NCBI GenBank assembly: GCA_965222155.1
Contig: CBDCTH010000012.1
Coordinates: 640,001 to 704,000, forward strand
Origin: Gammaproteobacteria bacterium
GTDB taxonomy: Bacteria > Pseudomonadota > Gammaproteobacteria > Eutrophobiales > Eutrophobiaceae
DNA length: 64,000 nucleotides
Reading direction: 5' to 3'
Shown: positions 4,630-57,224 of the stretch, one piece after another
Layout of the letters: each line of letters starts with the position of its first letter
Position numbering within the stretch: position 1 is the first letter of the stretch
Position numbers and translations under genes: made by a program
Notes under the pieces: model-generated
The model's input: the letters and a program-made list of their open reading frames with translations, nothing else
The model's database searches: none
What the model was told of the DNA's origin: nothing

Positions 4630-5019
4630 CCCGCATATCTCACCAATTGATGCGATGATCGCGCCGGATTTTTTGCGCCAGCGGGTGCCGGAGCCTGCCC
4701 CGTACTTGATACGGGGACCGAAAGCATAGCCGTAGCTATGGTTGGGGGACAAATCGTCAGTCCTGACGATTTGCACGGCGACAGCCGCCCGCAGGGTTGC
4801 GCCCAGAGCCTGCCCCCCTGCTTACAACCGCAGGGGCAAGCTCTGTATGGAGTTGAGCAGGGGGATGGGCGCAATGAACACGTGCCCGCTAGCGCAAAAA
4901 AGACAAGCGAGGGCGCATCAAGCGCAGTCTGTAATGATGATATAATGAGCAGATTACCATAACTTGTTGTCAGCAAACATCTATCCGAAGGCAACAAGCG
5001 AATTGGTGAGATATGCGGG
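4630..5019. mobile_element. MITE copy 1 (non-autonomous, modular)
   Basis: TIR CCCGCATATCTCACCAATT / AATTGGTGAGATATGCGGG; 4-bp direct repeat ATAG at 4626-4629 and 5020-5023. Confidence 0.85.
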
Positions 5020-6574: not shown

Positions 6575-7001
6575 CCCGGATTTTGCACCAGTGGATGCGC
6601 CCTCGCTTGTCTTTTTGGCGCTGACGGGCACGTGTTCATTGCGCCCATCCCCCTTGCTCAACTCCATACAGGGGCAGGCTCTGGGCGCAACCCTCCGGGC
6701 GGCTGTCGCCGTGCAAATCGTCAGTCCTGACGATTTGTCCCTCAACCAGACAAATCTGCCTGGAGCAGATTTGGACATCCGAAGGATGCCCGCAGGGTGC
6801 GCGCCATGGAGGGCGCACATCAACTACGGCTATGCTTTCGGTCCCCGTATCAAGTACGGGGCAGGCTCCGGCACCCGCTGACGGCAAAAATCTGCCAGGA
6901 GCGGATTTGGACGTCCGCAGGACGCCCGCAGGGTGTGCGCCATGGAAGGCGCACATCTAAAATCCTGCGCGATCATCGCAGCCACTGGTACAATATCCGG
7001 G
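6575..7001. mobile_element. MITE copy 2 (inverted orientation, extra internal modules)
   Basis: TIR CCCGGATTTTGCACCAGTGG / CCACTGGTACAATATCCGGG; flanks TGAA/TTAA; internal sequence is reverse-complement homologous to copy 1. Confidence 0.8.
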
Positions 7002-11251: not shown

Positions 11252-11587
11252 CCCGCATATCTCACCAATCCGCTTGGAGGTAGACTGAAACTTGTGTGCT
11301 ATCAAATAGTTACCTGGTTAATTCGGGTCATGGCATCATCACACACTGCGCTTGATGCGTTCATTGTGTCCGTCCTTGGACGCAACCCTGTGGGCGGCTG
11401 TCGCCGTGCAAATCGGCTGTCCTGCCGATTTGTCTCGCTTGTCTTTTGGCTGCCAGTGGGCACATGCTTCCTCAACCATAGCTACGGCTATGCTTTCGGT
11501 CCCCGTATCAAGTACGGGGCAGGCTCCGGCGCCCACTGGCAGCCAAAATCCTGTGCGATCATCGCATCAATTGGTGAGATATCCGGG
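11252..11587. mobile_element. MITE copy 3
   Basis: TIR CCCGCATATCTCACCAAT / ATTGGTGAGATATCCGGG; CTAG duplication at 11248-11251 and 11588-11591 (contains the lnt stop). Confidence 0.85.
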
Positions 11588-36169: not shown

Positions 36170-36509
36170 CCCGGATTTCTCACCAGTTGATGCGATGATC
36201 GCGCCGGATTTTGTGCGCCAGCGGGCGCCTGCGACCGAAAGCATAGCCGTAGCTCTGGTTGAGGGACAAATCGTCAGTCCTGACGATTTGCACGGCGACA
36301 GCCGCCCGCAGGGTTGCGCCCAGAGCCTGCCCCTGTATGGAGTTGAGCAGGGGGATGGGCGCAATGAACACGTGCCCGCTGGCGCACAAAAGACAAGCGA
36401 GGGCGCATCAAGCGCAGTCTGCTATAGCGATATAGTGAGCAGATTATCATAACGTATTGACAGCAAACAACTATCCGATGACGACAAGCGAACTGGTGAG
36501 AAATCCGGG
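36170..36509. mobile_element. MITE copy 5 (lacks two nested modules)
   Basis: TIR CCCGGATTTCTCACCAGTT / AACTGGTGAGAAATCCGGG; TTAG duplication at 36166-36169 and 36510-36513. Confidence 0.87.
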
Positions 36510-54168: not shown

Positions 54169-55185
54169 TCAGGTATACTCCCTGATGAGTTCGCACAGAG
54201 CAGCGATATGCCGGGGGCGGTCGTTCAGGGCAGGGATGTAAGTAAATTTTTCCCCACCGGCGGACAGAAAAAAATCCCTGTTCCGTATTTCAATTTCTTC
54301 CAGTGTTTCAAGGCAATCTGCCGCAAATCCAGGGCAGATTACCTGTACGTGTTCGATACCGGTCTTACCCCATTCCTGCAGCAGCTTGTCCGTATAAGGC
54401 TGTAACCATTCGCGGGGACCGAAACGAGACTGGAACGATACTTCCCAGCGATTTTTATCCAGTTCCAGCTGTCCGGCCACAAGATGCGCGGTTGCATGGC
54501 ATTCATCAGAATAAGGATCCCCGGCAAGAACATAATCCTTGGGTAAACCGTGAAATGAAAACAGCAGTTTATCCGCTTTGCCGGATTGCGCCCACTGCGC
54601 GCGGATGCTTTCTGCCAGGGCATCAATGTAGCCGGGATCATCATGGTAGCTTGTGATCATGCGTAACTGGGGGATACGGCGCCAGGTTTTCAGCACGGCG
54701 GCAACCGCATCGAATGTCGACGCCGTTGTCGCGGCTGAATACTGCGGGTACAGGGGCAGGATCAGCAGTTTCTTCAGGTTGTAGCTGCGCAGTTTCTCCA
54801 GGGTCGACCGGATCGACGGGTTGCCGTAACGCATACCCAGCTCTATGCGGTATGATGCTTCGGCGCTTTCACCCAGCGCCGACCGGATAGCCCGGCATTG
54901 TTTTTCCGATATGACCAGCAGGGGCGAGCCTGCTTCAGTCCATACTTCACGGTAAGCCCTGGCGGAACGACGCGGACGCAGCCTGAGAATGAAACCGTGC
55001 AATATGGGCCACCAGAGTAACCTTGGCGTTTCAATGACCCGTGGGTCCGATAAAAACTCCGCCAGGTATTTTCTCAGCGCGGCCGGCGTCGGCGCGTCGG
55101 GCGTCCCAAGATTGGTAACAAGAATCCCGGTGGTCGTCGGCGTATCGTATTTGAACTCGGGGTTGCCGCTGTATCTAGCCCGCAT
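54169..55185 (-). CDS. hemH: Ferrochelatase; current ATG is in a MITE TIR
   Basis: NLGTP, LPLYPQYS..TT, FSFHG, FQSRFG, DCLETLEEI. Confidence 0.96.
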   Translation of the reverse strand: MRARYSGNPEFKYDTPTTTGILVTNLGTPDAPTPAALRKYLAEFLSDPRVIETPRLLWWPILHGFILRLRPRRSARAYREVWTEAGSPLLVISEKQCRAIRSALGESAEASYRIELGMRYGNPSIRSTLEKLRSYNLKKLLILPLYPQYSAATTASTFDAVAAVLKTWRRIPQLRMITSYHDDPGYIDALAESIRAQWAQSGKADKLLFSFHGLPKDYVLAGDPYSDECHATAHLVAGQLELDKNRWEVSFQSRFGPREWLQPYTDKLLQEWGKTGIEHVQVICPGFAADCLETLEEIEIRNRDFFLSAGGEKFTYIPALNDRPRHIAALCELIREYT

Positions 55186-55513
55186 TTCTCACCAGTTGAT
55201 GCGATGATCGCGCAGGATTTTTGATGTGCGCCTTCCATGGCGCACACCCTACGGGCGCCCTGCGGGCGTCCAAATCTGCTCCGGGCAGATTTGTGACCGC
55301 TAGCGGGTGCCGGAGCCTGCCCCGTACTTGATACGGGGATCGAAAGCATAGCTGTAGCTCTGGTTGAGGGAGCATGTGCCCGCTGGCGGCAAAAAGACAA
55401 GCGAGGGCGCATCAAGCGCAGTCTGTTATGTTGATATAGTGAATAGATTATCATAACGTATTGACAGCAAACAACTAGCCGATGACGACAAGCGAACTGG
55501 TGAGAAATGCGGG
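55179..55513. mobile_element. MITE copy 6, inserted in the first codons of hemH
   Basis: TIR CCCGCATTTCTCACCAGTT / AACTGGTGAGAAATGCGGG; flanks CTAG/CTGA; orphaned ATG at 55521-55519. Confidence 0.87.
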
Positions 55514-55625
55514 CTGATCATCTGTTGTCGTTACAACTCTGCCGTACTCGCGTCATTATGGGTTAGTCCTGAAAACTTCACCAGTGGTTCCGGCTTGGGA
55601 CAGACTCCGTTTCTCGCCCCGTACT

Positions 55626-55662
55626 ATATAAAATAACTATCGACAGAATAGATATAATCAAA
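55626..55662 (+). promoter_or_regulatory. Putative OxyR binding site upstream of catalase
   Basis: ATAT-N7-CTAT-N7-ATAG-N7-CAAA versus consensus ATAG-N7-CTAT-N7-ATAG-N7-CTAT. Confidence 0.6.
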
Positions 55663-55733
55663 TTTATTTATTAAACGAGTGTATCTATACTCCTGTCTAA
55701 ATCAATAACATTCATTTTGGACGGAGGTGGTAT

Positions 55734-57224
55734 ATGAAACACAAAACCTTGACAACGTCATCAGGCGCACCCATCGCCGATGATCAGAATTCACTGACTG
55801 CCGGACCTCGCGGGCCAGTGCTGATGCAGGACTGGCAGTTAATCGAAAAACTCGCGCATTTCAATCGGGAACGCATCCCTGAGCGTGTTGTTCACGCCAA
55901 GGGGACCGGTGCCTACGGCACGTTTACCCTGAAAAAAGACCTGTCGGATTACACCGTTGCCGAGTACCTTAACGGCGCGTATAAACAATCGGAAGTATTC
56001 GTGCGTTTTTCAACCGTAGGCGGGGAAAGCGGATCGGCCGATGCGGAGCGTGACCCGCGTGGATTTGCCGTCAAGTTTTATACCCGGGAAGGTAACCACG
56101 ATATAGTCGGCAACAATACACCGGTCTTCTTCCTGCGCGACCCGAGCAAATTCCCCGATTTCATTCATACGCAAAAACGCAACCCGGTGACTAACTGCAA
56201 GGACCCGGAAGCGGTATGGGATTTCTGGGCATTGAATCCGCAGGCCATGCACCAGGTCACCATCCTGTTTTCCGATCGGGGTGTACCGGCCGATTACCGG
56301 CACATGAACGGCTACGGTTCCCACACCTATTCAATGTGGAACAACAAGGGAGAACGTTTCTGGGTGAAATGGCATTTCAAGACACAACAGGGAATAAAAT
56401 GTCTGACGGAAGCGGAAGCGCGGGAAACGTGCGGTCAAGACCCCGACCACGCGCAACGGGACCTGGTCGCGGCCATAAAGAGTAAAAACTATCCCAGGTG
56501 GACGGTTAACATTCAGGTCATGCAGGAAAAACAGGCTGAGACCTATGCAATCAATCCATTTGACTTGACCAAGGTATGGCCGCACAAGGATTTTCCGTTG
56601 ATTGAAATCGGCGAGTTGGAGTTGAGCCGTAACGTTGACAATTATTTTGCGGAAACCGAGCAGTCTGCTTTTGCGCCCAGCAACCTGGTTCCGGGTATCG
56701 GCGCCTCACCTGACAAAATGTTACAGGCCCGGCTGTTTGCCTACCAGGATGCGCACCGGTACCGCATCGGAGCTAATTATAATGATCTGCCGGTGAATTA
56801 CCCTCGTGCGTCCGGCGCGGAAAATTACCAGCGCGCCAGCGCTATGGCGGGCACAAAATGCCCGTTTGATCATGGACGCATCAACAGTGGCGCTGCTGAC
56901 GTCAACTACGGGCCAAATTCAAAAGGCGGCCCGGAGGAAAAACCCCAGTACCATGAACCGCCTTTGAGGCTCGACGCCACAATGATTGAACGCCATGATC
57001 ATCGCGCCGGAGCGGATGATTATTCCCAGGCCGGCGCCTTGTTCCGACTCATGACGGATGATCAGCAACAGCAAATTGCAAATAATATTGCCGGCAGTCT
57101 GGGGCAGGCCTCACAGGAAGTACAGGAACACATGTTCGTGCACTTCGATAAGTGTGACCGGCAATATGGCCGGATGGTTCGGGACGCGATTTCCATGCAA
57201 ACCGAACTGGCGCAGGCATCCTGA
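55734..57224 (+). CDS. katA: Monofunctional heme catalase (small subunit)
   Basis: FNRERIPERVVHAKG, VGNNTPVFF, RLFAYQDAHRYR. Confidence 0.95.
   Translation: MKHKTLTTSSGAPIADDQNSLTAGPRGPVLMQDWQLIEKLAHFNRERIPERVVHAKGTGAYGTFTLKKDLSDYTVAEYLNGAYKQSEVFVRFSTVGGESGSADAERDPRGFAVKFYTREGNHDIVGNNTPVFFLRDPSKFPDFIHTQKRNPVTNCKDPEAVWDFWALNPQAMHQVTILFSDRGVPADYRHMNGYGSHTYSMWNNKGERFWVKWHFKTQQGIKCLTEAEARETCGQDPDHAQRDLVAAIKSKNYPRWTVNIQVMQEKQAETYAINPFDLTKVWPHKDFPLIEIGELELSRNVDNYFAETEQSAFAPSNLVPGIGASPDKMLQARLFAYQDAHRYRIGANYNDLPVNYPRASGAENYQRASAMAGTKCPFDHGRINSGAADVNYGPNSKGGPEEKPQYHEPPLRLDATMIERHDHRAGADDYSQAGALFRLMTDDQQQQIANNIAGSLGQASQEVQEHMFVHFDKCDRQYGRMVRDAISMQTELAQAS

Follow-up and report, generated by a model that had tools for sequence, protein, structure and literature searches.

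The stretch analysed here, referred to as the window, comprises 64,000 nucleotides (nt) of contig CBDCTH010000012.1 (positions 640,001 to 704,000, forward strand) from a gammaproteobacterial genome of 4.55 Mb (assembly GCA_965222155.1, here G000; its relatives carry G numbers as well, and positions given with no contig name are positions in the window). Its ferrochelatase gene, hemH, lies on the minus strand at 54169..55185 and, according to the list of open reading frames (ORFs), encodes 338 amino acids (MRARYSGNPEF...; Pfam PF00762, E 1.8e-118, residues 19-336). We propose, with a probability of about 0.8, that this gene now starts at a Shine-Dalgarno (SD) motif and an ATG which come from the end of a MITE (miniature inverted-repeat transposable element), so that MRA-RYSGNPEF... 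has replaced the native MI-RYSGNPEF.... The start codon and SD part of this proposal is supported by sequence comparison, which establishes the insertion, the empty site, a solo-repeat derivative, the SD complementarity, the lack of any other start, purifying selection and recurrence at other genes; concerning the leader, that is the RNA upstream of the new start, the course of events is what we infer.

The inserted element and the start of hemH

The element occupies 55179..55513, measures 335 bp and carries no transposase, as determined by repeat search, BLAST and end alignment. Its hemH-proximal terminal inverted repeat (TIR, 55179..55197) and its distal TIR (55495..55513) belong to inverted arms (55177-55197 and 55495-55515) of 21 nt, which are 100% complementary, 297 nt apart and include 2 nt of each target duplication, and the flank alignment places the termini of the element at CCCGC...GCGGG. 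The proximal copy of the duplicated target, CTAG at 55175..55178, contributes to codons 3-4 of hemH (GCT AGA), and the distal copy at 55514..55517 (CTGA on the plus strand, TCAG on the minus strand) is identical to the empty site of the relative G014. Both element junctions are matched with 0 differences by contigs of two public sequencing runs, which may be the source data, and none of the contigs compared from these runs bridges across the element, so that no empty-site allele was seen there.

The native start codon (55519..55521, minus strand; ...CAG ATG ATC AGA TAC... in G014) now lies apart from the gene, upstream of the element. In size the insertion fits 335 + 4 = 339 bp, and deleting 339 bp from G000 gives ATG ATC AGA TAC AGC..., letter for letter the uninterrupted site of G014 (88% amino acid identity), which reads ...GTAACGACAAC AG ATG ATC AGA TAC AGC... 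and is translated as MIRYSGNPEF. It had originally been predicted, from the sequence of the window, that the element sits after the first one or two codons of hemH and that removal of 339 bp restores an in-frame ATG at 55521, which is what the G014 site displays; the second native residue had been given as isoleucine or threonine, and G014 (ATG ATC) decides for the former. The outward-reading TIR with an ATG in the hemH frame is likewise present as described, except that the letters CT-AG, then counted as repeat, are the target duplication, the element proper being the 335 bp that remain of the 339.

On the hemH strand, the outward end followed by the duplicated target reads CTGGTGAGAA-ATG-CGG-G|CT-AG. 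The proposed current start codon lies within the terminal repeat at 55183..55185 (minus strand), preceded by the SD-like motif GGTGA (55189..55193, minus strand) and 3 nt (GAA). The 16S rRNA of G000 ends in ...GGATCACCTCCTTA, and the GGUGA-UCACC pairing comprises 5 Watson-Crick pairs with a duplex energy of -7.4 kcal/mol, in agreement with the predicted complementarity between GGTGA and the anti-SD sequence; the native G014 site reaches -1.6 kcal/mol and GGAGAAGG, from another member of the genus, -6.6 kcal/mol. The spacer of 3 nt after GGUGA is equivalent to 6 nt after a GGAGG core, a spacing in the usual working range and near optimal.

Initiation elsewhere, either at a downstream non-canonical codon (e.g. 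the ATT at residue 21) or at the native ATG by bypassing the element, is very improbable. No ATG, GTG or TTG is found in frame in G000 hemH between the repeat ATG and codon 61, and the Pfam domain begins at residue 19. Rare starts are perhaps tolerated in this lineage, as the apparent ATT of hflX in five relatives indicates (see below), but the ATT at residue 21 of hemH has no SD, and RYSGNPEFKYDTP upstream of this residue is conserved across the genus orthologues. The native ATG opens a 31-codon ORF (55426..55521, minus strand; MISPHFSPVRL...) that crosses the distal repeat and ends at a TAA inside the element, 243 nt before the repeat ATG; the same frame then meets a TGA (55191-55189) two codons upstream of that ATG, and in G019 there is no native ATG to be used.

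The hemH locus was taken from 30 of 39 matching genomes (41 searched) and the three closest sequences were aligned. Beside the filled site of G000 and the empty site of G014, a third state is found in G019 (91% amino acid identity), where the locus reads ...GTAACGACAAC|TGGTGAGAAATGCGGGCT|AGATACAGC...: 18 nt of the repeat remain, the rest of the element is gone and the native AGATGATC is missing. The neighbour of hemH, a divergent catalase gene (55734..57224, plus strand), is the same in G000 and G019, hence the flanks are collinear. The G019 junction falls in a tetranucleotide, CAAC, which occurs in G000 before both the native ATG and the proximal repeat, and a single 329-bp microhomology deletion between the CAAC copies fits the derivation of G019 from a G000-like state, the reverse direction not being possible. 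hemH of G019 is intact and single-copy, and its repeat ATG is also preceded by a TGA two codons upstream. Since the native ATG is deleted there, the repeat ATG is the only possible hemH start in G019 (MRARYSG), and this solo repeat is the strongest evidence for the repeat ATG as a working start codon.

Among the 21 same-genus hemH loci inspected, an MRAR start occurs only in G019, the others beginning MARYSG, MVSYSG, MVSF.. or more divergently. The original prediction had named MRAR starts in relatives with no insert as evidence against it; the only MRAR relative carries the repeat remnant. A search for related loci among genome contigs returned nothing closer than G019 or G014. In G010, a more distant member of the genus, an independent end of a MITE of the same family (TTGGTGAGATATGCGGG + TTAG) lies about 75 nt upstream of the hemH start.

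The gene is the only one with PF00762 in the G000 genome, and its dN/dS of 0.16 against G019 and 0.14 against G014 indicates that it is under purifying selection. This bears on a further explanation, namely that hemH is silenced in G000, the in-frame ATG being a coincidence (1 in 3) and heme or ferrochelatase activity coming from elsewhere. The start site is structurally masked (see below) and the organism is known from metagenome assemblies only, with heme from a partner being possible, both of which speak for silencing. It is nonetheless a far-fetched reading of a gene whose ORF is intact at 338 amino acids, whose dN/dS is 0.14-0.16, which has no second copy to replace it and which adjoins the gene of a heme enzyme, the catalase; moreover, G019 kept exactly the repeat ATG while the remaining element was deleted, and the N-termini of seven further genes (mnmG, hflX and sufS among them) have been replaced in the same way.

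The element family and other genes opened by its ends

The G000 genome contains 87 BLAST matches to the hemH element, and the 17-nt terminal motif recurs, with at most 3 mismatches, at 220 ends. They include 77 paired copies of 121-590 bp, in addition to two copies of 1768 bp. The target duplication is of 4 bp with the consensus YTAR and is perfect in 32 of the 77 pairs (CTAG 15, TTAA 9, TTAG 5, CTAA 2, ATAG 1). The pattern of end plus duplication is present in 19 of 23 genus genomes searched (80 in G000, 35 in G002, 33 in G019, 31 in G006 and 15 in G014), and a reversed control pattern gave 0 matches. Within the window, other copies or fragments of the family lie at 4630-5019, 6594-6989, 11252-11587 and 36170-36509 (G000 C12:644630-645019, 646594-646989, 651252-651587 and 676170-676509), and elsewhere in the genome three identical repeat ends follow each other at a spacing of 79 nt (C12:1250834-1251010), a tandem array of a short end-containing unit and not an ordinary pair.

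The two 1768-bp copies (C12:1242097-1243864 and C4:218571-220338) have related ends (CCCGCATATCTCAC...) and CTAG duplications, and their transposase ORF matches NF033539, 'IS1380 family transposase' (E 8.8e-92, 307.9 bits against a cut-off of 180), and PF13701 (E 2.9e-119). IS1380-family members have ends starting with CC and a duplication of 4-5 bp, with which the CCCGC... ends and the 4-bp duplication of the present family agree. By these sequence traits, i.e. TIRs, small size, multiple copies, no transposase, an empty site in a relative and an autonomous relative with related ends, the hemH element is a MITE, a non-autonomous TIR transposon, derived from an IS1380-type parent. The transposase ORF at locus C12:1241597-1244364 has 394 amino acids and spans profile positions 3-362 of 419; the protein may be C-terminally truncated in this copy.

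At the position of the hemH ATG, the 220 ends carry ATG in 85 cases, ATC in 103, ATA in 23 and other codons in 9. The portable initiation cassette that had been envisaged is thus a property of the ATG-bearing repeat variant (85/220 ends), and the idea does not extend to the remaining ends. All 220 ends were scanned for an ORF opened outward from the ATG position. ORFs of at least 200 codons are in frame with 14 of 85 ATG-type ends against 7 of 135 non-ATG ends (one-sided Fisher p 0.006), counts which hold 3-mismatch matches (about 10 by chance genome-wide, by our own estimate), recR twice, an insertion sequence (IS) flank and a probable antisense ORF; the +1 frame, used as a control, shows no difference (9/85 versus 11/135, p 0.35). 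The genome-wide excess of in-frame ATGs that the original prediction had called for is hence observed against the non-ATG ends. ATG-type ends also lie farther from the first start codon beyond the element (Mann-Whitney p 0.012, with an IS flank and two probable non-genes left out and recR counted once). We read the in-frame excess as survivorship, in which insertions into first codons would last only if the ATG variant lands in frame. A single in-frame ATG is a 1-in-3 event, and it is the comparative together with the genome-wide data that raise the hemH case above chance. A frame test within the ATG-type ends (frames 0/+1/+2 = 15:10:3 at >=150 codons) was set aside, since the TAR stop of the duplication closes one frame and makes 1/3 an unfair null.

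Nine candidate genes, hemH included, were checked in five relatives each for the native N-terminus, and in 8 of the 9 the N-terminus of the relatives is replaced in G000 by a repeat-encoded MR(A/V). Thus, MNT(C/H).QEY of mnmG has become MRASEQEY, MDMETSPNTL of a UbiD-like gene MRANTLS, MI(S/N)PQ of sufS MRVDPT and MTLQRSKS of a PEP-mutase-like gene MRAKS, the last from a solo repeat. An S15-family peptidase, whose orthologue is found in G014 only and starts GTG-SGQKSE, begins MRARQASE, and pcm, which begins MSSKFQGIG in G002, begins MRAKHFQGIG in G000, G019 and G014. The Pfam domains of mnmG and of the UbiD-like and PEP-mutase-like genes begin ahead of the next possible start codon. In G000 the PEP-mutase-like gene and pcm have solo or decayed repeats, as have mnmG in G014 (17/21 positions kept) and pcm in G019. 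Of 18 further ATG-type ends in the latter genome, 4 open ORFs, with lengths of 113, 262, 417 and >=497 codons; the 262-codon ORF is a short-chain dehydrogenase that reads MRANKTVLITGAAQRIG and has its glycine-rich motif from residue 7. The claim that insertion is tolerated through the SD and start of the repeat is supported by the three-state series at hemH, the lack of a start before codon 61, purifying selection, and seven further genes plus at least one in G019.

The case of hflX is particular, because in all five relatives (G014, G020, G018, G019 and G002) the conserved N-terminus has no ATG, GTG or TTG ahead of it and the expected start is taken by a likewise conserved ATT AAT, so that a non-canonical start codon, ATT, seems to be used at A|TTAA|T. 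In G000 hflX (C12:1612629-1613033) the MITE is inserted in exactly this A|TTAA|T, giving a canonical SD and ATG instead of ATT (MRVNTLNT).

An aminotransferase gene (C12:2932574), considered as a ninth replaced start, was left unclassified, as the five relatives hold no close orthologue (33-35% identity). A hydantoinase gene at a repeat ATG retains its native ATG 3 codons downstream; this gene and the one at C9:20588 stood outside the orthologue comparison. recR (C1:5169 and C12:20566) begins MQAEPPRLS after ccGGTGAGAAATGCAAGCTGA and resembles an old, decayed solo repeat; two contigs each carry this locus, and the contamination of the genome is estimated at 7.28%. Finally, a recG-like ORF of 691 codons downstream of C12:2122541-2122779 continues into the element in the +1 frame, the sole outgoing frame that has no stop, and meets a start codon at 42 nt within it; here the element body, and not the end, may supply the start.

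The proposed leader RNA and the predicted masking of the start

In the course of events that we propose for hemH, a transposase-less derivative of the IS1380 family would have inserted in the 4 bp after ATGA of the native start, severing the gene from it, and the outward end plus the target duplication would have provided an in-frame TGA, the 5-nt SD match GGTGA, a 3-nt spacer and an ATG in the hemH frame. The insertion would have survived because the inserted repeat variant carries this ATG, which looks like exaptation under a selective filter, not design. The native promoter upstream would read through the element. Its presumed -10-like hexamer, CATAAT (55555..55560, minus strand), lies within the only upstream stretch that is conserved across the genus and was not called by the promoter scan; given this conserved hexamer and no promoter in the element, transcription of the hemH leader from the native promoter through the element, whose structured body would then form the new 5' UTR envisaged in the original prediction, is what we infer. 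In and around the element, the promoter and terminator scan detected no terminator on the sense strand; its only terminator-like hit is a hairpin with a T-run inside the MITE at 55200-55221, on the plus strand and thus antisense to hemH. It would halt transcription heading from the hemH side to the catalase gene. An Rfam scan of 54900-55800 on both strands with E up to 1 returned just two sub-threshold chance matches.

The read-through leader has 434 nt and a folding energy of -164 kcal/mol (fold z -5.05 for a similar stretch), and in the predicted folds the distal repeat pairs with the proximal one. As this pairing buries both SD and AUG, efficient initiation would need an extra unmasking step. 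Three candidates may be considered: the stem could be kept open, while the RNA is being made, by ribosomes that start at the native ATG and move on the 31-codon ORF across the distal repeat; the repeat-repeat duplex could be cleaved by an RNase III-type enzyme; or transcription could start at an unrecognised promoter inside the element. The deletion of body and distal repeat in G019 would lift the masking burden, and the picture of the element body as a burden and of its end as the useful part fits this.

Several observations weigh against a hemH start supplied by the repeat, or narrow what the evidence for it can carry. A scan of 55000-55800 found 0 sigma-70-like promoter sites on either strand. 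In the equilibrium fold, the probabilities that SD and AUG are unpaired in the G000 leader are 0.000 and 0.001, versus 0.36 and 0.45 in G019 and 0.51 and 0.76 in G014, and the ORF upstream of hemH stops 243 nt before the repeat ATG, so that direct termination-reinitiation is not available to this gene. Metatranscriptome contigs from relatives (5-6 differences) end at 55146 and 55120, short of the junction, and are silent on the hemH start and leader, such contigs being unable to reveal 5' ends; concerning expression, no RNA sequencing run contained more than 0.12 of the sampled sequence words. The target duplication copies at hemH, CTAG proximal and TCAG distal on the hemH strand, match at 2 of 4 positions. 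A one-sided canonical YTAR is also seen in other element pairs, and such mismatched copies might conceivably stem from gene conversion by other copies or from carry-over of donor flanks. Furthermore, G000 and G019 are related in a mosaic fashion across hemH: nucleotide identity is 98-99% over the initial 90 codons and 73-81% in the last third, with 203/209 identical positions in the upstream intergenic region, which suggests a recombination breakpoint inside the gene; owing to this mosaicism the insertion common to both genomes may reflect local recombination, not species ancestry. Across the family, 135 of the 220 ends have no ATG, hence the ATG is not a family-wide trait; the mixed composition of the in-frame counts given above belongs here as well, and the 0 replaced N-termini at non-ATG ends were judged by inspecting nearby start codons, not by orthologues.

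The masking also gives weight to an explanation that keeps the start codon and changes the RNA: an outward promoter inside the element, or a cut in the repeat-repeat stem, would yield a transcript whose SD and AUG stay free throughout, and the element would then contribute transcription or processing signals in addition to the start. Some escape is required, given that the start is buried when the read-through leader is folded at equilibrium; RNase III acts on long perfect duplexes, outward promoters are a known feature of IS1380-family members such as ISEcp1, and a perfect TTGACA stands 49 nt from the other, hemH-distal end of the element. Nevertheless, this TTGACA has no acceptable -10 and in the hemH copy is located at the far end from the gene, no sigma-70-like site was found on either strand of 55000-55800, and the UbiD-like gene lies directly behind the stop codon of its upstream gene, which argues for read-through transcripts at least there. 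We therefore hold a different RNA to be rather unlikely.

Coming back to a start supplied by the repeat on a read-through transcript, a more specific mechanism was also considered, in which end and duplication form a compact stop-SD-start-stop module (TGA-GAA-ATG-CGGGC-TAR) that re-couples translation: the native start would remain active, and ribosomes leaving it would melt the stem and hand over to the repeat ATG. With an in-frame repeat ATG the duplication has a set phase, so that reading from the native start invariably passes into the element as (S/N)PHFSP. Two of the three exit frames meet a stop within 8 nt of the repeat ATG, namely the TGA of GGTGAGA or the TAR of the duplication. The ORF of the native start runs through the whole element to the module in three genes, with 156 codons at mnmG (456-bp element), 107 at sufS and 52-54 at the UbiD-like gene, and with stops located 8 nt after the A of the ATG at mnmG and sufS and, as a TGA, 6 nt before the ATG at the UbiD-like gene; such stop-start spacing is the classic geometry of termination-reinitiation. 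At hflX this ORF ends 70 nt short of the repeat ATG. Among 150 element orientations, 27 have the (S/N)PHFSP frame open throughout, namely 3 of the 5 gene cases with a full element versus 24 of the 145 other orientations (p 0.04), and hemH is not among the three. As a mechanism general to the family, re-coupling has thin, suggestive support and would not apply to hemH; the module as a whole is a tentative proposal that we doubt more than we credit. Selective opening of the codon that closes the upstream ORF (TAA) was looked for and rejected: of 31 copies, 20 have a stop at this position and 3, the mnmG and hflX copies among them, have CAA, which looks like a subfamily marker given the opposite orientation of the hflX element.

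Consequences and comparison with known systems

If the start of hemH is as proposed, a transposon hit in the first codons of an essential gene need not kill, provided that the end of the element brings a ribosome site and an ATG, and more sites would be tolerated. New N-termini and 5' leaders from mobile DNA would be traceable in three stages, i.e. empty site, filled site and solo repeat. Gene callers will put the starts of several housekeeping genes of this lineage on repeat-derived ATGs, and the common MRA/MRV N-termini with their 17-nt upstream sequence could pass for a regulatory motif. The repeat hairpin may also impose a common post-transcriptional control on genes of heme synthesis, tRNA modification and Fe-S assembly. 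Re-coupling, were it true, would explain how a hairpinned transposon came to lie in the first codons of at least eight genes (hemH, mnmG, hflX and sufS among them) and why later deletion of the body left MRA/MRV solo-repeat starts across the genus.

The known effect of the IS1380 family on neighbouring genes is promoter donation, not donation of start codons. Its copies in G000 have 1768 bp and a transposase, and the hemH element has 335 bp and none. Among MITEs, the Correia elements of Neisseria (also CREE or NEMIS) have a TA duplication, IHF sites, promoters and RNase III processing, and are not known as suppliers of start codons. They resemble the hemH element in being MITEs with long TIRs, co-transcribed with their neighbours, whose TIR hairpin in the mRNA is expected to affect expression. 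The TA duplication sets them apart from the hemH element with its 4-bp YTAR duplication and IS1380-type parent.

Concerning start codons in mobile elements, a search of the main texts of open-access papers found no paper on an IS1380-derived MITE that donates SD and ATG, and the terms 'start codon' and 'ribosome' are both absent from a 2024 review on what MITEs do in prokaryotes (PMC10969869). For MITEAba12 of Acinetobacter the authors do note terminal start codons able to fuse to neighbours (PMC6382973). There the possibility is drawn from the consensus ('data not shown'), the parent is ISAba12 and the duplication has 9 bp, whereas the present case deals with actual genes, orthologue controls and an SD. 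In pneumococcal BOX elements, boxC can provide the start codon for an ORF that is expressed and extends beyond the repeat (PMC3049150); unlike hemH, the BOX ORFs described there are orphans with no good SD candidates and do not replace conserved housekeeping starts. Essential protein-coding genes tolerate insertion of Rickettsia palindromic elements, which are small and mobile and are translated in frame as part of the protein (PMC10969869), whereas the hemH element is shut off by stops in the hemH frame, with the gene restarting at its far end.

The closest published analogue is Neisseria REP2 (similarly IR-A/IR-B of Borrelia), described in a review as dispersed repeats with a promoter, a ribosome-binding site (RBS) and an ATG fused to ORFs and with no TIRs (PMC3184786). 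The likeness lies in an RBS and ATG within a repeat that is fused to a downstream ORF, here hemH and seven further genes. In contrast to REP2, which has a promoter, lacks TIRs and sits upstream of genes, the hemH element has TIRs and a target duplication, and no promoter was found in it; it inserts within the first codons, puts its own sequence in place of native N-termini and, on decay, leaves solo-repeat starts. Hence, the hemH element is REP2-like in its translation, while it is not a member of REP2.

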